A stretch of 29,495 bases of DNA from positions 1 to 29,495 of the IMG/VR virus record IMGVR_UViG_3300017754_002634; one strand, given 5' to 3'. Origin of the DNA: a virus. Taxonomy: Duplodnaviria > Caudoviricetes. Under the pieces are notes generated by a model. That model worked only from the letters and a program-made list of their open reading frames with translations. It searched no databases and was not told the origin of the DNA. Of this stretch, positions 1,752-15,987 are shown piece by piece (within the stretch, counting starts at the first letter, position 1; each line of letters begins with the position of its first letter). The position numbers and the translations under genes were made by a program.

Positions 1752-1899
1752 AAAGGGCAAGGGATTCTTCATCCCTTGCCTTGCCACCGAGAAGGTACGA
1801 CAGACAGGGCTTAACGCAGCCCTGTCTTTTCGCATCTTTGACGCCAAAGCCTACCCGGCCATCAAAGATGGCCTCATGGGCGTGTGGTTCTTTCGGTAG
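1714..1899 (+). CDS. Small hypothetical phage protein (61 aa), possibly DNA-binding
   Basis: ATG ORF overlapping the end of the helicase gene. It is basic, with an FPW...KG.GFFIP...GVWFFR pattern resembling small conserved phage proteins. Confidence 0.65.
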   Translation: MQYSYRFPWARLKKGKGFFIPCLATEKVRQTGLNAALSFRIFDAKAYPAIKDGLMGVWFFR

Positions 1900-4800
1900 C
1901 CGCGTAGAACTGCAGCGCCATTTTGTTCTGCGCGTCTTTGAGCTGCTGCACCCTTGCTTCTTTCTCGTCCCCTGACAACCGTGGGTTAGCAATGATCTTT
2001 CTTTCCATATCAAACAACTCCCCCATGCGCTGGCGGAACGCGCCTGCCATCGGAGCGCCGACAATCAACGCCGCATTTTCTTTGGCGTACGCAGCGGCGC
2101 GGTCCTGCTGGCCACGGTTCACCAAGTCTTTGTACGTCTGCTGGGCTTGGATCACATCGTCCATGCGACCGTACGCCCGTTCGATCACAAACCGGCCCTC
2201 GGAAGGCTGGAACAACCCGCCAATGAACGGCTGGCGTGAAGCACCCACCGGCATCTTCTCGCCCTCGGCTTCGGAGCGCAGCAACGGATTCAGCGTGGAC
2301 ATAAGCGCCACCCCAAGACCGCCGGTGTAACCGCGAACAAAATGCTCGATCAACAGCGGCGAGATACCGACAGCGCCAGTCACACTGCCAAGCGTCTTGG
2401 CCACTTCTGTCGTGCCTGCACGGAAACGCTCGCCTGCTTCCAGACGCTTCTCACGATCAGACTCAATCGGACCGAAAGCTGTTTCGCCGTAGAAGGCTTC
2501 CAAGATTGGCTTGGGAGCCGCAGGAATAACGCCCGGTGCCGAGTTCAGGATCAGCTTACCAATCGCTTTGGCGGCTTCGTTGCCGGTAGCGTTGCCCATG
2601 GCAACGTCCATCAAGGCTTGTGGCAAACCCATAAACAGCAAACCAACTTCAAACGGCACAGGCAGTTTGAGCGGGTCCTTGACGCCGGGGATGTTGACAA
2701 AGAAGTTGCTGTACCGTTCTTCGGGCTTGGCCTTCTTGTAGTCCTCATCGTCCTGCATCATGAAGGCGTATGCCAGCGAACCCGCAAACAGCATGGCACC
2801 ACGCGCTGCAATCTTGCGCTGAATCTCCAGTTGCTCGTTGAACGGCATGTCGCCTTTGAACGAACGGTACAGAACGTCCAAGCCCTGAATCTGGGCGTTG
2901 AAGAACGGCACCAGAGTGCTCATCATCTGCATGCTGGGCGACAGGCCACGGCGACCAAAGTTGGCCGACTCCATGGCGCGGAACTGCGCTTTAGCTTCAG
3001 AGAAACCCTTCTTGATCGAGTCGTTGTAAATTACCGCCCGGGTCGCAGCATCGGCCTGCAACGCCATGGTGTCAAGCTTGCCCAAGAACTTATCCCAGCC
3101 GCTGCGGCCTGCGGACACGTCGCCCAAGAACTTCTGCATGTCGGCTTCGCTGCCGGTGTAGATGTTGGAGCTGACCACAAGACCGCGCATGAGCGCCAGT
3201 TCAGCGGGGCTGCGTCCTGCCCGCATCTTAGCCAGTTCACGCAGTGCGTTGGCAATCGGCACGCCATCCACGCCGGAGACAATAAACGCGTTAACGGGTT
3301 CGCGGACCAACTGGCGCACAACGTAGGCGGGGCTGCGTGTAATGAACTTGCGCAGAATATCCGCAGGGATGCCCATCATCTTCACCATGTCGGGGATGGT
3401 GGTCTTGATACCCTCCATGCCGCGCACGATCAACTCGGCAGGGATACCGAAAGTATCCGAGTCGATCACAGCAAAGTGGTCTTCGCCGTCAATCTTGTAG
3501 TGAACGGTGTTGGTGTTAGCCAGCCCTGCACCCTTACCCATCTTGGAGACAAACCCGGACTTATAGAGGGCGTTGGTGGTCTCCATCGTCGCCTTGTTGT
3601 GCATTGCCATGCGGGTGAGCATGAACGTGTTTTGCACAGCGCTGGTCAGAATCGGCTGAATCTTTTTCTCGTCGCCCAAGAACTGCTTGAGGTCGGGGCT
3701 GTCCTTAAGGTTGCCAATGGTAATCGGGCGCTCGCCCAACACAAACAACTTGACGTTGCCGTCTTCGACCCGATAGAAAGGCACGTACGGCTGCTTGTTC
3801 AAACGCCGCACTTCGTCTTTGCTCAGGTAACCAGACTGCGCCGCAAAGTCCAAAAGACCTTCGTTGTAGTTTTTGTACTCGCGCATGGCTTCTTCCATAG
3901 CCGCTTTAACCTCGGGGTTGGCGTTCATCTTGTTGACGTAGTCGTTGTACTCGGCTTTAGCCTTGGCAGGTTCCTTGGCTTGCAAACGTGTCCAGCCGTC
4001 AGCCACAGCGTTGGCACGCTGTCCTGCAATCAAAACGGTGAGCATGGCCTCGGCTTCTTGTGGGTTCATCCCACCGGCTTTGGCCGCACGCTCCATGGCG
4101 GTGCTTACGCCGACGAGGTTTGCGCCAGACGTAGACTCGTAGCGGTACTCGGTAGCTTTGCCCACTTTGTCCGCAACGATCCGCACAGGGCCGTCTGTGA
4201 TGAACTGGCCAGCCGCCTGCGTCACTTTATCGCCCATGCGCATGAAGTACTGCGCGTTGAACGCTTCGGTGGACGACAGCTTGCCCGCGCCTTCGGCCTT
4301 AACAAAGGCCTCATCAGTAGCAGCAAGGCGGTCGATGTACTGTACACGCCCGTTCAAACCAAACAAATTGCCGCGCAGTGTAGCCAGCTTGCCGGGTTCG
4401 TAACCGATGATGGACGACGCGGGCGGAGTCTCACGGCGGAAAATCGAAGGAACAGCCTGCTTGCCAACAGTAAGCGTGTTCGACGGCGAATAAATCTGTT
4501 TGATCAGTGCGCTGGTTTGGTCGCTAATTTTTTCAATCGGCTTTGTGCTCCACAAACGGGTCAGTGCGTGCCAGAACCGTTTATACCAAGGCTGGTTGTC
4601 AACGGCGGCACGGAACGCGACGTTCGACTGCATCTCTGACACAAACTCTTCTACGTCAACAATACCGTATTCGTTCTTCAAGTCCCTGCGCTTTTCCAGT
4701 TGTTTGAAGATTGCAGTAATCTCTCGCTTGGCGTTGCGTTGCTGCGGTGTCAGCTTGTCATCGGGCGCACGCAGTACCTGCAACGTAACTGCGTGAACAG

Positions 4801-7800
4801 CTTCGTGCACGAGTGTTTCATCCGTAATCTCACTAGGCCGGATCAAAACGGTGTTGTTGGCAGGGGTGTACAAAGCAGGAACCGCCACACCGTTGTGCAT
4901 CAGGTCTGGCACCGTCTCAACTTTTGTGCGCATCAACAGACGGCGAATATCGTTTGCTGTTTCGCGTACCAGAGGATTGCTGCTGTCCACAGCAAGCCGC
5001 TCAATAGCTTCAACAAAACGCCCATCCATGACGGCCTCTATGACCGCTGGGTTTGAGTCCATTTGCACGTTTGTTGAGTACGTTGCAGCAACGTCGAAAC
5101 TGCCTTCATCGCGGATGCCGCGTCGGCTTCCTTGTTCAGCACGTTCCAGCTCCACACCGGCTTCTTCTTGGCCGGGCTTTGCAGAGATGCGCATGGACTC
5201 TTCAATGGCGTCTTCTGCTTGCGCTTTGGCGGACTTGTTAGAAGTAAAACCCGCCGCCACGTTGGCTTCGGCATCCCGAAGCACTTCAAACATACGGTTG
5301 CGTTCTTGCTCGGCTTCATCAACCGCGTCTTTTGCCAGCTCTTTTGCAGCCGGTGTTTTGGCTGCTTTATAGTCAGCTTCGGCTTTTGCGAACGTGGCCA
5401 CGGCCGCGTTGTACCGTTCCTTTGCAGCAACCACAGCGGCAGCGCCGGGCACTTTGATCAGGTCGTTACCTTCCTTGATCTTGTCTTTGATCTGCGCATC
5501 GGTCATGCCGTTAGTAGCGTCAGCAAACGCTGCTTGGAGTTTCTCTTTGCGATCGCCAGTAGCAGCGTCAAGTTTTTGTTTCAACACCGCCAGACTTACC
5601 GCGTTTGCATCGGCGCGGTTCATGTCCGCAGCCGTCAAGCGCACTGCGCCTGTTTGCATGGGGCGGTTGCCTTTGGCAATAGCTTCCCGAGACTCTTCCG
5701 TACCGGACAGCATCTGGCTTGGAGGCTGCGTGCCAACCCGCGCAACAGGTCCAACTTTGCGGCGACCAAGCCGGGTATCGGGCGCAACCAAGGGTTCAAC
5801 ACGCTCAGCAGTGCGGTACTCAGCACCTTCACCAACAGGTGTAATAACGCGTTCGCCCAATTGAGTGACGCTTTCGTAATCGCGTTCGAGTTGTTTGACG
5901 GCACCTGTGAGACGCTGCACCTCTGCCACGTTGTCTTGCGCTTGTGCTTTTTCCAGTTCGGCTTGGCGAAGGTTCAATGTATCGCGCACCGCTTTACGGG
6001 TCTTAACAACCAGAGAAGATGTGGTGTCGCTCTCGTAACGAGTACCGCGCAAACCAAGACCTTCGCGGATACGGGCCAGCGCAGCACGTTCTGCGTTGGT
6101 GTACTTGAAAGCAGCCGTTTGGTCTGCTGGTTGTTTGGCCGCTTCTTCGCGCTCGGCAATCTTTGCGCCTGCAAGCGCTTGGTTGGCTTTCTTCAAACGC
6201 TCCGCCATCTCTGCGCCCTCTTTTGCTTTGGCGTCAAGCTGCGGAATCATGTTTTGAATACTGGCGACTTCGGTGTCAATCACGGCTTGGATGTCATTGC
6301 CGTAAGCGCGAGTCAACCCCAACTGCTCCAGTCGCGCTTTCTTATACGCAAACTGGTACTGCGCGAGGTCTGCTGCGGTCTTGTTGTACGTGTCCAGTAA
6401 AGAGTTGTACGCACCAAAACCGTAACGACGCGCCCAATCCGACAGCTTCATCTCGGTTACGTCGCTGACTTCTCCCGGAGCAATTGGGAGCAGCGCCGAC
6501 TGGCGTTCAAGCGCGGTACCAAGTTCGGCCAATGTAGCTGTTTTGCTGGCCGAATCCGGAAGTTTTTCAGCTGCAGCAATTTGTTTCTGTGTGCCTGCAA
6601 GCATCTCGTCAAGCTTGCGTTTGGCAGACGTGAGTTCTAAGTCAGCAAAACCCAACTCTTGCGACGCAACCAGTGCGTTGTTGTTTTTCTCTTTAACCAA
6701 CGCATTAAAAGACGTAGTCCATGCGTCTTGTTTTTTACTCTGCTCTTTTTCCAGTTCACGAATCAGCAATGCAATATCCCGCAACTGCGCATCAATGGTG
6801 GCGGATACGGTCTTTTGTTCTTTCTCGTCAAACACTGAACCGCGACGCGCAGTGAAGCGGCCTGTCGTGCCAAGCAGTTTTTCTCTTTCGGCGTTCAAGC
6901 GAGCAAGCACATCGCCCACAGTGTTGCCTGCCGTAGTTGTTTTGAGAGCAGCGTAAGTCTGCTCCATGTTTTCTACTTGCTGCAGTTGCGCAGGTTCCAA
7001 GCCGCTTGCCAAGAGTTTTTCAATTTCGGTTTCAACTTCTTTAGCGACGTTTTCAGGGTACACCTGTTTAAGCGCGGCGTTCATGTTCTCAATATTTTTG
7101 GTAGAGCGAGCAATGCGCTTTTCCAAAGATTCTTTTTCCGCTGTTCCGCGCGCCGCTTGGGCTTCAACTTCTTTCTGGTAGCCGCGCAACATGCGTGACG
7201 ACAGCGCCACCTTTTCAACAGGCACCGGTGCTGTAGTCTTCTTTTCAATCTTGGTGATACCCCAGCTTGCCAATTTCTTCGGAAGCGTGCGAGTTTTACC
7301 CGTAGGCGTGCGGTAGCCTTCGCCTGCAATCAAGCGTTCAGCTTCTGCCGTGCCGGGAGTAGCGCCTGCACGTACAGATTCTTGCTGCTCGTAAGCGCGT
7401 TGACGACGCTCAAGGTCGGCCATTTCTGCGCGGACTTTTTCTTGCTGCTGCAAGTTGTCCTGCAAAGCCTCTTCCGCCAGTTTGCGCTTGCTACCTTTGA
7501 CGAGGTTGTTAAAGTAGTTGATCTCTTTTCGCTGCTCCTCGGCGCGTTCAAGATCGCGTGGGGTTGCGTCAATCCGTTTTGGGTAGCGCTTGCTAAGCAC
7601 CGCCGTTTTTTGCGCGGGCCATGTCTTTACGATCGGGTCGTTTGACTGAACCAAGAACGCTTCGTACTGCTCTGTTTTCATGGCCGCTACTTGACGCAAG
7701 TAACGGGTAGGGTCAGCGTCCCCAGACGCCCGAGCTTTGCGCAGCGTTTCTTCCACGTTTTTCAAAGCAACCAGACGTTGCTTAGCGTCTTGCAGTTTGG

Positions 7801-10800
7801 CGGGGTCTACGGGTTTCAGGCCAGCGCGGCGCTCAAACCCGGGCAGCGTTCGAGTGCGTGTATCTTCTTGCTCTGCGCGTTCACGTTCACGCGCTTGGGC
7901 AAACTCATCAAAGCGTTCGCTTCTGCGACCAGACGCCTGTTGAAGGCGGGCTTCAGTTTTTTCAATCTGTTCCTCAACTTGGCGCAGGCGAGGGGTGTCT
8001 TTGCTGTACTGTTCGGCCAGAGCTTGCAGTTGAGGGGTAGCACCGACTTGACCACGACGCTGCATACCGGTTTGAATGTCATCACGCTCAGCGTACAGTT
8101 TGTCCAATTCGTTTTGGATTCGGTTGGCTTCGGTGCGAGCTTTTTCCAATCCGCCAAACAAGTCTTCGGTTGCTTCAAACGGGCGCGGCGCTCCAAACTT
8201 AAGGTCGCCTGTACTCTTGCGAACACCGGGAGCAGTTTCTTCAGCTTCAAAAAGAGGTGTTTGGCGTTCAACCACTGCCTCGTATTGTTTCTGTACAGCG
8301 TCCAACTCATTGAGCGTGCTGTCACGCAAATCTTTCAGGTCGTTAAGACGCGCCAGTTTTTCTGGGTCTGATGGTCGACCTGCCTTTTGGATAGCGGCGC
8401 TGTATTCTTTTAAACGTGCCCGCAACTCTTTGGCGCGATCTACCAAGTCCGCTGCTTGTTCAATTGGTGCAACGCTAGTCTTCTGTGCAGCGGGCTTAGC
8501 CGGTGCTGGGGTGAATTCCATACCGGCAAGTTGTTTTTGCGCTTCCACATCAAACAGCGATGCTTGACCCAGCTCTTTCTTTTCCTGACGGGCTGCCGCA
8601 GTTTTGGCTCCTTCCGCATCGACTGCTTTTTCACCGGTGATGTAGGGCATCATTCGGTCAATCAACTCAGCAACACGCGCATCACTTGCTTGTGTGATCT
8701 GAGAGTCAACATCGGGTTCACGAACCGCTTTGTCTCGCCCAATCTTCAGCTTGCGTTCGACCTGCGCCAATGCTTTATCAACGGCATCAAACTCGGTGCG
8801 CACCAACTCAAGCGCTTTTGACGGGCCGTATTTTGAAAAGTCGTTGTACTCCGCCTCAAGTTCCGTACGTTTGCGCTTGAGTTGGTCGCGCAACTTTTCC
8901 CGGTCAGCGACACGGAATGCGTTTTCTTTGGCTTCTTTATCGAACGACGCCCAGTCTTGCTCGTTTTCTTGCACTAACAAACTAGCGCGTGTAGCCTGAT
9001 TAAGTTTGCCGCCGGGCTGGACACGGTAAGGCTGCGCAAACTTCAAGCGCTCTTTAGCGGGTTTGCTGGCTTGGCGCATGATCTCACGCGCCTCATCCAA
9101 CCGTGCTTTGCGCAGCCCCACTTCAAAGTCGGTAAGCCCCTTGTCTCCCATGCGGAACAGCGCATCGGTTTCTTTGGCCACAGTTTGGCTGCGGCGCTTG
9201 GCATCTTCCCGGGCCTCGGCAATTTCTTGCGCCAAAGCGTTGTCAGACGGAACGCCTGTATCAAAAGACAGCTCGCCTTGTTGTTCAGCTTCAGCCAGTT
9301 TTGGCACAAGCTGACGAATGGCTTCAACATCACCCGTAGCTTTGGCGGCATCCATTTGGTCGCGCAGGTTGCTCACGGACGGCATCTGCGTAACCGTCTT
9401 AATAAACGGCTTGAACTGCTGCAGGTTCTTGAGCGCAGTCTCCATCCGCTCCATGTTGGCAAGGATTGCCTGCTCTTGCTCGGTTGTGTTGGCGTCAACA
9501 AGTTTTTGTTGCGCGGTGTTAATTGCGGTTTGGATTTGTTTTTGGGCCGCGTTATAGGTGTCCGCATCCGGCACCAGTTTTTCCAACGTGTCTTCCAACG
9601 CGTTGATTTGGTTTTGCAGCGGCTGTTGCTGAGCAGGCGGCAAACCTGTCTGCTTCTTTTTGAGGTCGTCAATCTGCGCTTTGATCTGCGTAGCTTGCCC
9701 CATGTCGGATGTGTCCTGCGCTTGGTACGCAGGCTCTTTTCCAAATACGGCTTCGGTAGCTTTCTTCTCAGCTTCCATCTTGCGCAACAGGGGCGCGGCT
9801 TCAACACGCTCTTGCACCAACGCTTCGTACTCGGGCGCTGCTCTAAAGTCTTTGAGTGCGTCAACTGCTTCTTTGCGCTGTTCGGCCGCAATTCGCTTTG
9901 AAGCAGGGTCTGTGCCTTCTGGCTTGACCTTGGTTTTTTCGTCCAGTTCTTTTTCTTGGGCAATTAGCTTGTCATAGCGAGTCTGAAGATCGCTCAGGTA
10001 TTCTGGCTTGGAGCGCTCAACCGCCACCCGTTTCTTTTCTTCTTCAACGCGTTGAGCTTCGACTTTGGCAGCGGCTTCGGAGTCAAGGCGATCCGCTTCT
10101 CTTGCTTGAGTCTTAGCACCGCTGCGCTCAAAGGCACGGCCAAACGGTGCAGCAGCACCGCCCAACACAGCACCACCAATGAAACTGTCGATGTACTCTT
10201 TGCGGGCTTCGGGGTCGGCAATGTTCAGCCCGGCTTGCAAGCGCTCGAGCACTTGTTGCGTGGCTTCGGTCACACCCTCTCGTCCTGCAGTAGCGCCGGT
10301 CTTGGCGGTGTAGTCCATGATGGTTTTGCCAAGCGTCTGATTGGCAAGAGCACGGGCTTGTTCGGTGGTCAGCTTAGAACCCACGGAGCCAAACAGCTTG
10401 CCGATACCGGGAATCAACGCCATAGCGGCGGTGTCCAGAACAGCTTGAGGAATAGCCGCGCCAAAGGCTGCGGCTCCGCTGGCCTGCTCCAGCGTCTTGC
10501 CTGTTTCCAGTTGAGCGCCAAGGTTAGAGGCCGTGAACTGGCCGGTGGACACCGCGCCTGCACCCAACAAACCCAAGCCAGCAGCAACTGGAGCGGATAC
10601 AGGGGCAGCCAAAGCACTAAGACCTGCAGCGGCGGGGAGGGCCATGTACGGCAAAGAGCCGCCAAGGGTCTCTCTAAACTTTAACCCGAAGTCCTCAGTC
10701 CAGCCTTTTTCCGTAGGGGTAAAGCGTGCGGCAGCTTTGGCTTGCGCGGCTTCGTATTCTTTCTGCGCTTCGGCTTCGCTCTTGACGCCCAGCTTACCCT

Positions 10801-11008
10801 TGAGCAGTTCAAATTCCCCGCCAAGTCGGGTAGCACCGGCAGATGCGGCGGCTTTAAGACCTGTGGTGTCTTGTTTGGGTTTGGCCTCTTCCCTACGACC
10901 AAATGCGTCGGGGTACAGTTTGGAGGCTTCTTGCAGTGCAGCTCTTGGGTCTTCGCCCTCTTTGAGAGGGAACCACGAACCATCTGGGAGCTGGACTGAC
11001 TGTGCCAT
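1874..11008 (-). CDS. Giant internal virion / DNA-ejection polyvalent protein (3044 aa) with zincin metallopeptidase (MPTase-like) and C-terminal LPD38-like domains
   Basis: 9.1-kb uninterrupted ORF and last gene of the late region. The N-terminus has Gly/Ala-rich hydrophobic segments, followed by a long charged helical region. HEAVH lies at 4793-4807 followed by EEFVSE. C-terminal motifs PFFNAQIQG, LPVPFEVG, PKPILE and HFVRGYTGGLG resemble LPD38. Confidence 0.85.
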   Translation of the reverse strand: MAQSVQLPDGSWFPLKEGEDPRAALQEASKLYPDAFGRREEAKPKQDTTGLKAAASAGATRLGGEFELLKGKLGVKSEAEAQKEYEAAQAKAAARFTPTEKGWTEDFGLKFRETLGGSLPYMALPAAAGLSALAAPVSAPVAAGLGLLGAGAVSTGQFTASNLGAQLETGKTLEQASGAAAFGAAIPQAVLDTAAMALIPGIGKLFGSVGSKLTTEQARALANQTLGKTIMDYTAKTGATAGREGVTEATQQVLERLQAGLNIADPEARKEYIDSFIGGAVLGGAAAPFGRAFERSGAKTQAREADRLDSEAAAKVEAQRVEEEKKRVAVERSKPEYLSDLQTRYDKLIAQEKELDEKTKVKPEGTDPASKRIAAEQRKEAVDALKDFRAAPEYEALVQERVEAAPLLRKMEAEKKATEAVFGKEPAYQAQDTSDMGQATQIKAQIDDLKKKQTGLPPAQQQPLQNQINALEDTLEKLVPDADTYNAAQKQIQTAINTAQQKLVDANTTEQEQAILANMERMETALKNLQQFKPFIKTVTQMPSVSNLRDQMDAAKATGDVEAIRQLVPKLAEAEQQGELSFDTGVPSDNALAQEIAEAREDAKRRSQTVAKETDALFRMGDKGLTDFEVGLRKARLDEAREIMRQASKPAKERLKFAQPYRVQPGGKLNQATRASLLVQENEQDWASFDKEAKENAFRVADREKLRDQLKRKRTELEAEYNDFSKYGPSKALELVRTEFDAVDKALAQVERKLKIGRDKAVREPDVDSQITQASDARVAELIDRMMPYITGEKAVDAEGAKTAAARQEKKELGQASLFDVEAQKQLAGMEFTPAPAKPAAQKTSVAPIEQAADLVDRAKELRARLKEYSAAIQKAGRPSDPEKLARLNDLKDLRDSTLNELDAVQKQYEAVVERQTPLFEAEETAPGVRKSTGDLKFGAPRPFEATEDLFGGLEKARTEANRIQNELDKLYAERDDIQTGMQRRGQVGATPQLQALAEQYSKDTPRLRQVEEQIEKTEARLQQASGRRSERFDEFAQARERERAEQEDTRTRTLPGFERRAGLKPVDPAKLQDAKQRLVALKNVEETLRKARASGDADPTRYLRQVAAMKTEQYEAFLVQSNDPIVKTWPAQKTAVLSKRYPKRIDATPRDLERAEEQRKEINYFNNLVKGSKRKLAEEALQDNLQQQEKVRAEMADLERRQRAYEQQESVRAGATPGTAEAERLIAGEGYRTPTGKTRTLPKKLASWGITKIEKKTTAPVPVEKVALSSRMLRGYQKEVEAQAARGTAEKESLEKRIARSTKNIENMNAALKQVYPENVAKEVETEIEKLLASGLEPAQLQQVENMEQTYAALKTTTAGNTVGDVLARLNAEREKLLGTTGRFTARRGSVFDEKEQKTVSATIDAQLRDIALLIRELEKEQSKKQDAWTTSFNALVKEKNNNALVASQELGFADLELTSAKRKLDEMLAGTQKQIAAAEKLPDSASKTATLAELGTALERQSALLPIAPGEVSDVTEMKLSDWARRYGFGAYNSLLDTYNKTAADLAQYQFAYKKARLEQLGLTRAYGNDIQAVIDTEVASIQNMIPQLDAKAKEGAEMAERLKKANQALAGAKIAEREEAAKQPADQTAAFKYTNAERAALARIREGLGLRGTRYESDTTSSLVVKTRKAVRDTLNLRQAELEKAQAQDNVAEVQRLTGAVKQLERDYESVTQLGERVITPVGEGAEYRTAERVEPLVAPDTRLGRRKVGPVARVGTQPPSQMLSGTEESREAIAKGNRPMQTGAVRLTAADMNRADANAVSLAVLKQKLDAATGDRKEKLQAAFADATNGMTDAQIKDKIKEGNDLIKVPGAAAVVAAKERYNAAVATFAKAEADYKAAKTPAAKELAKDAVDEAEQERNRMFEVLRDAEANVAAGFTSNKSAKAQAEDAIEESMRISAKPGQEEAGVELERAEQGSRRGIRDEGSFDVAATYSTNVQMDSNPAVIEAVMDGRFVEAIERLAVDSSNPLVRETANDIRRLLMRTKVETVPDLMHNGVAVPALYTPANNTVLIRPSEITDETLVHEAVHAVTLQVLRAPDDKLTPQQRNAKREITAIFKQLEKRRDLKNEYGIVDVEEFVSEMQSNVAFRAAVDNQPWYKRFWHALTRLWSTKPIEKISDQTSALIKQIYSPSNTLTVGKQAVPSIFRRETPPASSIIGYEPGKLATLRGNLFGLNGRVQYIDRLAATDEAFVKAEGAGKLSSTEAFNAQYFMRMGDKVTQAAGQFITDGPVRIVADKVGKATEYRYESTSGANLVGVSTAMERAAKAGGMNPQEAEAMLTVLIAGQRANAVADGWTRLQAKEPAKAKAEYNDYVNKMNANPEVKAAMEEAMREYKNYNEGLLDFAAQSGYLSKDEVRRLNKQPYVPFYRVEDGNVKLFVLGERPITIGNLKDSPDLKQFLGDEKKIQPILTSAVQNTFMLTRMAMHNKATMETTNALYKSGFVSKMGKGAGLANTNTVHYKIDGEDHFAVIDSDTFGIPAELIVRGMEGIKTTIPDMVKMMGIPADILRKFITRSPAYVVRQLVREPVNAFIVSGVDGVPIANALRELAKMRAGRSPAELALMRGLVVSSNIYTGSEADMQKFLGDVSAGRSGWDKFLGKLDTMALQADAATRAVIYNDSIKKGFSEAKAQFRAMESANFGRRGLSPSMQMMSTLVPFFNAQIQGLDVLYRSFKGDMPFNEQLEIQRKIAARGAMLFAGSLAYAFMMQDDEDYKKAKPEERYSNFFVNIPGVKDPLKLPVPFEVGLLFMGLPQALMDVAMGNATGNEAAKAIGKLILNSAPGVIPAAPKPILEAFYGETAFGPIESDREKRLEAGERFRAGTTEVAKTLGSVTGAVGISPLLIEHFVRGYTGGLGVALMSTLNPLLRSEAEGEKMPVGASRQPFIGGLFQPSEGRFVIERAYGRMDDVIQAQQTYKDLVNRGQQDRAAAYAKENAALIVGAPMAGAFRQRMGELFDMERKIIANPRLSGDEKEARVQQLKDAQNKMALQFYAATERTTRP

Positions 11009-12759: not shown

Positions 12760-13788
12760 TCAGATTTTGGACAGGGCCAGCTCAGCCAAGCCTGCCGATT
12801 TTTTCTTCTCGCGCTTGATCTTGGCGTCAGAGACGCTACCGCCTTTGGCCATGAGCTTGCTTGCGCCAAGCGCCGCCGTTCCATAACCCAATGCCTGTGA
12901 GCTTGCGCTTGGCGCTGCTGTATACATGGTTTGAGTCGAGCCAGAAGGCGTACCGCGCAGCAAGTTGGATTCGAACTCCAGCTGCTGGTATGGGAACTTC
13001 TTCTGAGCCAAGAAGTCTTCGTACTGCTGGGCAAGGATGTTCTGGACTTGTTGCTGCTGCTGTGTGCCGTAGCCTGCCTGAAGCCTGTTGACGTCCATGC
13101 CTTGCTGGAATTGCTGCTGAGCGCCTGTAAGGGCTGTTTGAAGACCCTGCAAACCAAGCCCCGCGCCGTACTGGCGTGACTGCTCACGAAGCTGCTGCTC
13201 TGTGTTGAACTGGTTCTGAGCTCGGCCATAAGCATCTTGCAAGCCACGGGCTTGGATGTCACCTTGCTGGGTAGCCAAGTTACGCGCAGCTTCAGCGTCC
13301 ATGATGGCCTGACGGCCTCCGCCAAACGCACCTGACTGAACGGCTTGAGCGCCGCGCTGGGTACCAGCAACATCCGCCATACGCTGCGCTTCGCGCTGCT
13401 GGATATCCACCACGTTCTGCATGTACGGGTCCATGTACTGACTTGCTTGCGCACCAAACTGGCCGGTGGCATATGGGTCGTACGAGGTGTTCAGCGCCTT
13501 GTTGACCGCCTGCCCGGTTGCGGCAGAGGGGCCCATGTTGGTAGCACCCGCAAATGCACGTTGCTGCAGCGGGGTAAACTGCGCTTGGCGTTCGCCTTGG
13601 TATGCTTGATACGGGGCGTTCGACAGCGCGGAGCCTTTGCCGAGCACTTCTTGCGCGTACGGCTTGGCCCAATCTGGAAGGTCTTGGGTTTGTGTGCTCT
13701 GTGCAGGCTGCCCGCCACCGCCATCGTCGCAAGGGTACAGGCGGATACCGTCCTTGGTGTAGCCTTCGTGTTTGGATTTAATCAGCAT
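12760..13788 (-). CDS. Internal virion / ejection (pilot-like) protein (342 aa; P22 gp7-like position)
   Basis: Start re-assigned to the ATG at 13788 (MLIKSK..., SD GAGG) rather than 13812. Gln/Ala/Gly-rich, with motifs YMDPY, GAFGGGR, 'YEDF...FPYQQL' and a Gly-rich C-terminus with MAKGG. Confidence 0.7.
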   Translation of the reverse strand: MLIKSKHEGYTKDGIRLYPCDDGGGGQPAQSTQTQDLPDWAKPYAQEVLGKGSALSNAPYQAYQGERQAQFTPLQQRAFAGATNMGPSAATGQAVNKALNTSYDPYATGQFGAQASQYMDPYMQNVVDIQQREAQRMADVAGTQRGAQAVQSGAFGGGRQAIMDAEAARNLATQQGDIQARGLQDAYGRAQNQFNTEQQLREQSRQYGAGLGLQGLQTALTGAQQQFQQGMDVNRLQAGYGTQQQQQVQNILAQQYEDFLAQKKFPYQQLEFESNLLRGTPSGSTQTMYTAAPSASSQALGYGTAALGASKLMAKGGSVSDAKIKREKKKSAGLAELALSKI

Positions 13789-14275
13789 TGCGTGCCTCGC
13801 ATTCTTTGGCAAAATTGTTTAGGTATTGGTCGAAGGTTTCTTCGTGCGCCCAGCGGCGGATGTCCGGCCCAATCTCTCGCGCCCAGTCCAAGCCACCCAC
13901 AATCAGGGCGGAGGCTGACAACACGTCGATGTACGCGCCGCGCAGGATGAAAGCAATCGAGCGGTCCTTTTCGTTGCCTTCGCGCTCCAGCTTGTTGGCG
14001 ATGTGCCAATTCACCACGGCGTTCACCAAGGTGCTGCTGAGCAGCCCAAGATGCGCTTGATAGAACTTGTCGGCGGGCAGTCCGATCAACAAGTCCCAGA
14101 ACACAGCATGAATCTCGTCATCCGCGACGGGCTTGTCCTTGTCGATCAAGTCATCCCAGACGTGCAGGGCACGAAAGACACGAACAACAAACTGCACGGC
14201 CTCGGCATCCCCCTTGAGGAATTGGCCAAACAGCGGGACGTGCTTGTTCAGGCGGTCAAATTCTGGTGTGTTCAT
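13778..14275 (-). CDS. Isoprenoid-synthase / prenyltransferase-like protein (165 aa, DDxxD motif)
   Basis: Apparently all-helical protein with HVWDDLIDKD (DDxxD at 14141-14155). It has an ATGA overlap with the upstream gene and an 11-nt overlap with the downstream gene. The ORF is very likely real; the function is inferred. Confidence 0.6.
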   Translation of the reverse strand: MNTPEFDRLNKHVPLFGQFLKGDAEAVQFVVRVFRALHVWDDLIDKDKPVADDEIHAVFWDLLIGLPADKFYQAHLGLLSSTLVNAVVNWHIANKLEREGNEKDRSIAFILRGAYIDVLSASALIVGGLDWAREIGPDIRRWAHEETFDQYLNNFAKECEARNAD

Positions 14276-15987
14276 GCTGGGAGCAAGTTTTCTGCGCGGC
14301 TGTTGACGGCTACGCGGTTTTTGCCAATAGACTTCTTACGGGCTTTTTGCACACGGTCCATCATGGCGTACAGCTTGCGTGCGCCAGCTTCGGTCGAGCC
14401 GTTGCCTAATTCAGAAACGATACGAGCAGGCACAACGAACTCACCATCAGCAAGACGCGCTGGGCGCTTGTCCGCAATCGTTGCAGGAATGGAATCAGAT
14501 ACGCCATCACCGGGTCCTTTCAAAAGACGACCGCCGTCCGAGTAATCGCCAAGATGGCTTGGGCCGCCTTGGGCCAGCGCAGCAATACCCCCCTGCGCCA
14601 TGCCGAACGAGCCGTAGTCCACTGCTGTGGACGGAGTTGGGTCTGTCACAGCGGGCGCAATGATGGGCATTCCCGTAAACGTACCCGTGATTGGGTCGAA
14701 CGTGTAAGGTCGCATGGTGGTGTTTGCGGCGGAAGACTGCGTAGCAGCCGTGGCGGGAGCCGCAGCAGGAGCCGCAGCAGGAGCTGCAGCAACAGGTGCA
14801 GGAGCTTTTGATGGCGCAGGCATCTGGCCCATCAGGTATTTAAACATATCGCCGGACTGGCCAGACATGGTGTAGTAAGGGTCTTCCTCAACAGGCTTGA
14901 CCGCCTTGGCCTCGCCGCCTTTGGCAAACATCTGGCCTTGGTTTGCCATCAATGTTTGGGCTTCGTTGCGATCCGACATGGCTTGCACAGGACCGATGTC
15001 CATGAGACCGCCGCCTGCGGCCAGACGTGTAAATCGAGGGTCAAAATGCAAAACTTCCCCTGTGTATGCGCCGGAGCGGTTTGCATACGGGTCTGAAATA
15101 CGGCCGGGATCGTACGAATACATGAACGGTTTGTCGTCGGGGCGCTTTTCCATTTGTTTGGGGTCTTGAATCATCATTGGAGCCAGACCGGCGAGGCCGT
15201 ACTGCAGGTTTTCCTTGGTCATGAAACGCTTGGGGTCCTTTACCAGTTCACCAAAACCCGCTTTTAGAGTATCCATTGGCGTTGTTGTAGCCAGCTTTTG
15301 TGCGACAGCGTTCTGTGCAGCTTGTTCCTGAGCGTAGATGTTGCCAATGTCCGCCGCTTGCTGGGACAAAACTGGTGCCTGTGTGATGGTGGGTGTTGCT
15401 TGCGCGACCATCTGACCTGCATTTATTGCAGGCGTTGGTGCGGCTGCAATTGGAAAGTCGTACGCACTAGCAAGTTGCTTTGCTGAGCCTCCCAGAATGT
15501 CGGGAGCCACGTTTGCTGCAGCGGACCCCGCGCCTTCGATGAGTGCTGGTGCCACAGCTTCGGTAGCTACAGCAGGTACAACGGAATTTGCAGCGGCTGT
15601 ACCGGCAGCAGAAGACAGTGCGCCCGTACCCGCAGCGCTCAAACCACTCGCCAAGCCTGCACCGCCGTACGCGCCCAAACCCGCCATCAAACCCTTCTTC
15701 AGACTGCCAGTAGCCACAGTGCCCAAAGCGCCTGCAGCCAGACCTGCTTGCATTGCTGTCAAACCCAACCCGGCCGGGCCGAGGAAAGCGCCAGCCACCA
15801 ACGGCAGGATGCTCGACAGGAAGCCAGCTTCGGGTAAACCCGTATCAGGGTTGATGGTCAGGGAGCCGCCATGTGCTTTGGCAAGCGCCTGCAGGCCAGC
15901 CACTTCTTGTGGGGCCATATGGACTAATGTCGTGTCTGGGCCACGGCCACGGGAGGCCATGTGTTGTGCGGCTAGTTGCAGGCTCAT
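14272..15987 (-). CDS. Internal virion protein (571 aa) with N-terminal GRGPDT.LVH...NP.TGLPE domain and C-terminal tape-measure-like GPG.G.SDSIPA...GEFV domain
   Basis: SD GAGAGG. A hydrophobic Gly/Ala-rich stretch follows residue ~55. It has several AxGG motifs and the C-terminal GPGDGVSDSIPA...LADGEFVVPA. Confidence 0.7.
   Translation of the reverse strand: MSLQLAAQHMASRGRGPDTTLVHMAPQEVAGLQALAKAHGGSLTINPDTGLPEAGFLSSILPLVAGAFLGPAGLGLTAMQAGLAAGALGTVATGSLKKGLMAGLGAYGGAGLASGLSAAGTGALSSAAGTAAANSVVPAVATEAVAPALIEGAGSAAANVAPDILGGSAKQLASAYDFPIAAAPTPAINAGQMVAQATPTITQAPVLSQQAADIGNIYAQEQAAQNAVAQKLATTTPMDTLKAGFGELVKDPKRFMTKENLQYGLAGLAPMMIQDPKQMEKRPDDKPFMYSYDPGRISDPYANRSGAYTGEVLHFDPRFTRLAAGGGLMDIGPVQAMSDRNEAQTLMANQGQMFAKGGEAKAVKPVEEDPYYTMSGQSGDMFKYLMGQMPAPSKAPAPVAAAPAAAPAAAPATAATQSSAANTTMRPYTFDPITGTFTGMPIIAPAVTDPTPSTAVDYGSFGMAQGGIAALAQGGPSHLGDYSDGGRLLKGPGDGVSDSIPATIADKRPARLADGEFVVPARIVSELGNGSTEAGARKLYAMMDRVQKARKKSIGKNRVAVNSRAENLLPA

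Follow-up and report, generated by a model that had tools for sequence, protein, structure and literature searches.

Enzymes with the class I isoprenoid synthase fold that act on peptides are the closest described counterparts of the phage protein analyzed here. According to the accessible portions of PMC13290415, all characterized trans-IDS-like prenyltransferases target Trp residues; phages are not mentioned in those portions. For StheQ, the accessible part of 10.64898/2026.08.29.745113 describes the diphosphate of FSPP as held by D85, D89, D91, and K174, with a metal-free pseudo-SARM. On the phage side, PMC8954989 (accessible part) names T7 gp14 as the first protein to be ejected, with the outer membrane as its destination, and classes P22 gp7 as gp14-like. 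Both T7 and P22 carry a gene of similar size in the slot before the first ejection gene, and Pfam assigns the respective products, T7 gp13 and P22 gp14, to PF11090 and DUF2824. We take both to have the GNAT fold. The locus described below bears on two questions about short-tailed phages: the route by which their first ejection protein gets into the outer membrane and the role of the small gene that precedes it. A literature search, with most subscription papers outside its coverage, returned nothing on phage ejection proteins or Lap adhesins as targets of prenylation.

Gene arrangement, predicted fold, and conserved residues

The window, i.e., the entire stretch of 29,495 nucleotides that was analyzed, is a phage segment that, judging from family matches, encodes a tail collar, an SU10-type adaptor, a GH19 endolysin, and virion proteins. 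The first-pass annotation had reported a 165-aa ORF with the motif HVWDDLIDKD, coupled to both of its neighbors, and had proposed that its product is a prenyltransferase that takes the place of a GNAT-type acyltransferase and lipidates an ejection protein. The ORF is indeed present at 13778-14275 on the minus strand. It overlaps both neighbors, sharing the ATGA at 14272-14275 with the 571-aa ORF and 11 nt with the 342-aa ORF, whose ATG lies at 13788 with GAGG upstream. The features of this region are as follows.

13778..14275, minus strand: half-size protein of the class I isoprenoid synthase fold, predicted protein prenyltransferase, 165 aa (unnamed phrog_21390, structural model, conservation)
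14135..14155, minus strand: DDxxDxD motif with D41, D42, D45, and D47, putative Mg2+/diphosphate site (conservation, spacing as in StheQ)
13940..13987, minus strand: E97 and R112 (96% and 99% conserved)
12760..13788, minus strand: first DNA ejection protein, 342 aa, in a P22 gp7/T7 gp14-like position, candidate substrate (phrog_4287)
13732..13788, minus strand: 19-aa leader of the 342-aa protein, common to DDxxD-linked and GNAT-linked partners
13729..13731, minus strand: Cys20 of the 342-aa protein, candidate acceptor (sole Cys in four window proteins)
13711..13728, minus strand: Asp/Gly-rich linker after Cys20, missing in partners that lack a modifier gene
14272..15987, minus strand: 571-aa upstream protein, a neighbor only and an unlikely substrate (no Cys)

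The 342-aa product matches phrog_4287 (“DNA ejection protein”) with an E value of 1.3e-18, and the ejection block ends with a Cys-free protein of 3044 aa (1874-11008, minus strand). The sole profile match of the 165-aa protein is phrog_21390; it matched no Pfam family (E 0.1) and no NCBIfam family. As the first-pass annotation had stated, isoprenoid pathway genes are absent nearby: none of the 19 window proteins scanned (a set without the 3044-aa ORF) matched such families, and none matched the PF00348 large catalytic subunit. At related loci, the DDxxD gene is flanked by ejection or Lap genes, and the gene upstream of it differs among distant relatives.

An AlphaFold model built with 36 sequences is all-helical, without strands (pLDDT 93.7), and places the Asp motif at the end of helix 24-45. 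In a structural comparison against 48,161 chains, all 50 matches listed were class I isoprenoid synthase-type proteins, headed by two heptaprenyl diphosphate synthase chains of 188 and 236 residues (5h9d_D, with Z 10.1, rmsd 4.0, and 147 aligned residues, and 9kp1_A, with Z 9.2), followed by MoeN5 (5b02; Z 8.5) and by GGPP and polyprenyl synthases; terpene cyclases rank lower among the matches listed. The best score lies below the value of ∼13 that the comparison tool asks of helical bundles, which may match generically; the matches are uniform nonetheless. The model spans approximately residues 30 to 230 of full-length synthases, and the C-terminal third of the fold is absent. Folds of dUTPase, MazG, or HD hydrolases do not occur among the structural matches listed, which does not exclude such folds. 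Searches by other routes found little: Foldseek against the PDB gave no matches at E≤0.001 (GGPPS rows reached a probability of 0.97, and rows for the LIP5 MIT domain, with an rmsd of about 13, were set aside), PDB chain sequence searches with the protein and two profiles gave nothing meaningful, and BFVD contained four uncharacterized relatives and nothing else. An hhalign comparison with 11 IPPS sequences yielded no significant match (probability 1.5%) and placed the motif on the second, rather than the first, DDxxD of IPPS. Membership in the class I isoprenoid synthase fold superfamily is thus a prediction from the model, and the expectation of an isoprenoid synthase/ComQ fold held for the fold and failed for membership in the ComQ family. 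The hallmarks of PF00348 chain-elongating trans-IDS were also absent from the 165-aa protein, which has no SARM, no RR, and no profile match; without a SARM and RR, chain elongation is not expected.

A profile search (E≤0.001) placed 1,645 clusters at 50% identity in the family, and 86 of 122 candidates were confirmed as homologs. Loci were sampled with the pattern [HE]xWDDLID, which favors some subfamilies; another subfamily was sampled separately. In 150 aligned members with a mean column identity of 30%, D41, D45, and D47 are conserved in all sequences, a degree of invariance that puts the motif beyond chance, and D42 (97%), W90 (95%), E97 (96%), and R112 (99%) are nearly invariant. A second DDxxD, noted earlier as missing from the 165-aa protein, is found in only 4 of the 150 homologs, and an Arg-Arg pair in the loop that follows the first motif is seen in 3; all 11 IPPS controls show both. 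The suggestion that NWHIANKLE forms a second metal site was discarded, as only W90 and E97 are strongly conserved in it (N94 is at 70%, H91 and K95 below 60%). The spacing of D41, D45, and D47 equals that of D85, D89, and D91 in StheQ, so that the FARM has the DDxxDxD spacing of the ComQ family. Judging from spacing, E97 and R112 might correspond to D153 and K174 of StheQ, the helix Asp and the Lys that line the donor pocket of the IPPS fold. Comparison without residue-level superposition revealed no conserved ND or Gln column in the 150-member alignment that would match the ComQ pseudo-SARM (NDxxx) and its upstream Gln. Among cultured phages, the gene is carried by Achromobacter phage CF418P1 (WNO49113; its partner, WNO49114, has Cys at position 3), and named Halomonas-group strains also encode it. 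One 315-aa member (P0087) has two tandem DDxxD domains. In two Desulfovibrio prophage-like loci (L194:4624-6588 and L195:4678-5380), the gene lies, as judged by eye, between terminase-like and portal-like genes and adjoins small proteins that start with Met-Gly; such contexts suggest that other small virion proteins may be substrates.

The half size of the 165-aa protein and the identity of its two best structural matches fit a binder that transfers nothing: a HepS-like small subunit, or a chaperone, bound to the N terminus of the ejection protein or to a prenyl diphosphate or acting on a host prenyl synthase to retune it. PF07307 is also among the nearest named clusters in the Atlas (0.78), which is only a lead. 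Retention of the acidic triad, E97, and R112 at 30% identity argues against this idea, as do the exchange with a GNAT-fold gene and the lone Cys of bacterial adhesins (both described below), the latter left unexplained by a binder of host synthases; we consider such a role distinctly unlikely. A transferase that modifies the same Cys with a non-isoprenoid, diphosphate-activated donor would accommodate the lack of detectable sequence similarity to IPPS and the missing C-terminal third. It is disfavored by the titles of the structural neighbors listed, every one of which names an isoprenoid diphosphate enzyme (and all the enzymes among them presumably use isoprenoid diphosphates), as well as by two family members, P0136 and P0148, in which the DDxxD domain is fused to a SAM methyltransferase with BezA as the best PDB match (E values of 2e-6 and 2e-7), ahead of other methyltransferases only narrowly. 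With both lines of evidence pointing away from it, a non-isoprenoid donor appears highly improbable. BezA is a GPP C6-methyltransferase (PMC10881772, accessible part), and the fusion proteins may, to go by this match, make a methylated prenyl donor, which lends weak support to an isoprenoid as the donor.

The slot before the ejection gene and the N terminus of its product

The position of the DDxxD gene directly before the ejection gene is conserved. At 80 loci, the best 80 of 184 ejection protein matches, this slot holds a DDxxD gene in 7 cases, a GNAT-type gene of 134 to 150 aa in 29, and neither in 44; in 43 of the latter, a 571-aa-type gene abuts the ejection gene, and one is unreadable. 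The GNAT assignment comes from a structural model for the 135-aa product (50 GNAT-fold matches listed, top Z 13.1), which, unlike the model of the 165-aa protein, contains strands, from Pfam for the 150-aa product (PF00583, E 2.6e-9), and from alignment only for those of 134 and 143 aa. Transferases of two unrelated folds alternate at this position, and each is paired with a corresponding residue in the partner. The idea that the two genes exclude each other was borne out as far as the exchange goes but does not apply strictly: no DDxxD gene was found in 111 GNAT loci, and a GNAT gene accompanied the DDxxD gene at 2 of the 197 DDxxD loci sampled and at 3 of 78 in the sister subfamily. P0139 appears, by eye, to fuse GNAT and DDxxD domains, and in P0139 and at five loci (L175, L255, L431, L435, and L438) the two are fused or in tandem before a single ejection gene, possibly reflecting double lipidation or a replacement in progress. 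Another locus, L092, reads from the GNAT-type gene into the ejection gene in one open frame, through either fusion or an assembly error. The N terminus of the ejection protein is Gly-rich in 7 of 7 DDxxD-linked and 27 of 29 GNAT-linked cases, compared with none of the 44 with neither gene.

Cys20 is the only Cys residue in the 342-, 559-, 571-, and 3044-aa proteins of the window, which total 4,516 aa. The 197 DDxxD loci form 103 clusters at 85%; once 38 bacterial entries and 14 without a readable downstream gene were set aside, 83 clusters remained, and their partners comprise 45 with Cys (at the N terminus or just after a leader), 18 starting with Met-Pro, and 20 others. Covariation of the enzyme with the downstream N terminus is evident from the comparison of these 45 of 83 clusters with 1 of 33 usable GNAT clusters (of 36), the single exception having its Cys inside the leader. 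Where the shared 19-aa leader is present, the residue that follows it (residue 20) is Cys in all 18 partners of the window's enzyme clade (including the window's own record and one Cys shifted by a deletion), in none of 28 partners of the sister clade, and in none of 7 GNAT-linked proteins; a minimal pair is formed by the GNAT-linked L284, with RLYP-M-DGG, and the window, with RLYP-C-DDG. In 34 leaderless partners, the first 8 residues contain 51 Cys, versus 4 in the other 11,580 residues, and the first Cys is at position 2, 3, or 4 in 22, 9, and 4 clusters, respectively (n=35). Partners in the sister subfamily (73 read at 78 loci) have Ile, Leu, Phe, Met, or Val in place of Cys, the nearest exception being L433, with a Cys two residues earlier. 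Eight prophage-like matches from Halomonadaceae have partners that, where read, start with Met-Ser. As Cys is lacking in 38 of the 83 clusters and in the L096-type subfamily, one chemistry does not cover the whole family.

In a quick tree of 135 enzymes, the partner classes cluster, with 23 changes versus a shuffled mean of 79, and the window enzyme falls in a 62-row group (SH-aLRT 87) that contains 44 of the 46 rows with Cys partners; the counts are phylogenetically nonindependent, and kin share labels, so that such clustering does not amount to proof of coevolution. The small size, helical fold, and acidic motif of the 165-aa protein, together with the terpene cyclases found lower in the fold list, would suit an all-alpha nucleotide pyrophosphatase (dimeric dUTPase- or MazG-like) or a small-molecule terpene enzyme that is in the operon by coincidence. 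Given that, across phage groups, the gene tightly overlaps ejection genes and that it covaries at the residue level with two unrelated protein partners, this is very unlikely.

An N-terminal Cys is not exclusive to DDxxD-linked partners, as T7 gp14 begins with Met-Cys behind a non-DDxxD gene. Leaders of a few types (window 13732-13788; L278-L468) precede ejection proteins next to either modifier and none where the modifier is absent. The P22 gp7 record has 20 residues removed by OpdA, and by analogy the leaders may be signals for host peptidases; the 19-aa leader is likely removed by a host peptidase, with a putative cleavage site before Cys20. A caution comes from P22 gp7 itself, where the residue aligned in the Tyr-Pro-X register forms the end of the removed leader.

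Three acceptors had been put forward for the 342-aa protein, namely Cys20, the Trp of LPDW (Trp40), and a processed N terminus, of which Cys20 is the favored one in the window. Trp40 would make the enzyme a ComQ-like Trp prenyltransferase in line with the Trp preference of known IDS-fold peptide prenyltransferases (PMC13290415, accessible portions), and all 7 close DDxxD-linked partners have it. It is also kept by 21 of 29 GNAT-linked partners, so that it is not specific to the enzyme class, and Tyr is found at that position in close DDxxD-linked partners; modification of Trp40 has next to no probability in our estimate. The 571-aa protein, the other proposed substrate, contains no Cys, and the corresponding upstream gene varies in distant relatives. 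The complex prediction for the enzyme with 2 Mg and partner residues 20 to 55 scored 0.00 and provides no evidence either way.

The branch next to bacterial adhesins

A branch of the family is encoded in Achromobacter, Pusillimonas, and Halomonas-group chromosomes, where the gene directly follows that of a giant LapA-like adhesin and precedes lapG/lapD or a small Lap locus gene.

L162-L179, L182-L185, and L481-L483: bacterial branch loci, with the gene directly after the adhesin (e.g., L179:5007-5492)

Few genomes carry this branch: it was found in 3 of 151 in one sample and in 1 of 121 in another. In the quick tree, rooted at the midpoint, its 11 clusters fall within the Cys group and are separated from the remaining enzymes by a branch with SH-aLRT 97. 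In 8 of them, the adhesin has one Cys, located 272 to 460 residues from the C terminus in a Gly/Ser-rich segment, upstream of the RTX repeats; it occupies three or more different loop positions. The L162, L172, and L179 adhesins have no Cys, L179 over its full length. At the matching segment, the L179:175-4950 and L172:1-2667 adhesins have Met-Tyr or Leu-Tyr in a Gly-rich turn; the enzyme may be a relic there or possibly use another acceptor. Among 58 adhesin loci for which the type I secretion target domain was the sole criterion of choice (the 30 best matches from each of two family searches, less two weak partial ones), Cys occurs in the last ∼600 aa of the adhesin at 3 of 3 loci with the gene, two of whose adhesins are close kin, versus 0 of 55 loci without it (35,373 residues). 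In phage ejection proteins and bacterial adhesins alike, the Cys tracks the window's enzyme clade.

These adhesins bear on which nucleophile is used. If the leader were cleaved, the same enzyme and donor might act on the α-amine of Cys20, with a single N-prenylation chemistry across the family. N-terminal amine prenylation is among the known bacterial modifications (PMC13290415, accessible portions), Cys is at position 2 in 22 of the 35 leaderless clusters, and the sister-clade partners, which start with Ile, Leu, Phe, Met, or Val, with Pro, or with Ser, have only the amine in common. On the other hand, 13 of the 35 clusters have their Cys further in, at position 3 or 4, and in the adhesins of the nested bacterial branch it is internal. 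A Cys there carries no free amine, an argument for the thiol. The single α-amine chemistry was dropped as the favored reading once the adhesin Cys appeared, and we now consider it unlikely for the family as a whole.

The proposed modification and known systems

The proposal of a prenyltransferase that replaces a GNAT-type protein in the ejection operon is supported by the fold, the conservation of the Asp residues, the exchange in the slot, and the covariation with the partner N terminus. Prenylation of the N-terminal region of the ejection protein, whether on a thiol or an amine, can be regarded as probable; in the window, we favor, with moderate confidence, attachment of a host isoprenoid by the 165-aa protein to the Cys20 thiol of the 342-aa protein, the thiol being preferred over the amine because of the Cys at positions 2, 3, or 4 and the internal lone Cys of the adhesins. 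Mg2+ bound at D41, D45, and D47 would ionize an allylic diphosphate, of which FPP is the likeliest host pool, and the Cys, in its flexible Gly/Ser-rich segment, would attack the ionized donor. A host peptidase would take off the 19-aa leader, and the lipid, a predicted anchor for the host envelope, would help the first-ejected protein into the outer membrane. Sister clades whose partners start with Ile, Leu, Phe, Met, or Val, with Pro, or with Ser likely N-prenylate the α-amine instead.

The wider reading, for which we see roughly even chances, is a protein S-prenylation system of phages and Gram-negative bacteria, in which a half-size enzyme, interchangeable with a GNAT-type protein, modifies a lone Cys on ejection proteins and on the distal end of giant adhesins secreted by the type I route. 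If such a system exists, lipidation would be a general requirement of podovirus-type genome ejection, and the slot of T7 gp13 and P22 gp14 would be explained. The prenylation proposed here, if it occurs, would give a fold that in peptides is known to modify only Trp two further kinds of acceptor, Cys and the α-amine, extend Cys prenylation beyond the eukaryotic CaaX systems, reveal lipid modification of biofilm adhesins, and provide a tool enzyme of 160 aa.

As is predicted for the 165-aa protein, ComQ, StheQ, PalQ, and ChrPC combine the isoprenoid synthase fold and one metal motif with a substrate encoded next door. ComQ-type enzymes target Trp in a short cognate peptide, whereas the present family, with ∼160 aa and no detectable similarity to IPPS, tracks a Cys or N-terminal residue, and the partner here is a 342-aa ejection protein. 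A similar truncated helical core, with 8 to 12% identity, is found in the HepS/HexA small subunit (PF07307; 5h9d_D and 9kp1_A) and MoeN5 (5b02). The small subunit of heptaprenyl diphosphate synthase is noncatalytic and requires the large subunit; MoeN5 prenylates a glycolipid. The T7 gp13/P22 gp14 genes share the position and size of the 165-aa gene but differ from it in fold and donor. The small modifier gene of HlyC/CyaC lies beside that of a type I-secreted RTX toxin, and the enzyme, which has another fold, places an acyl group on Lys; the bacterial branch would resemble this arrangement in that a residue upstream of RTX repeats would be lipidated, but its partners are LapA-like adhesins beside lapG/lapD, unlike the RTX toxins. 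The eukaryotic CaaX prenyltransferases have an unrelated fold and recognize a C-terminal CaaX signal. Their product, a Cys with a thioether-linked prenyl group (PMC13290415, accessible portions), is the same as that predicted here, where the Cys lies at the N terminus or within an internal loop rather than in a C-terminal CaaX.
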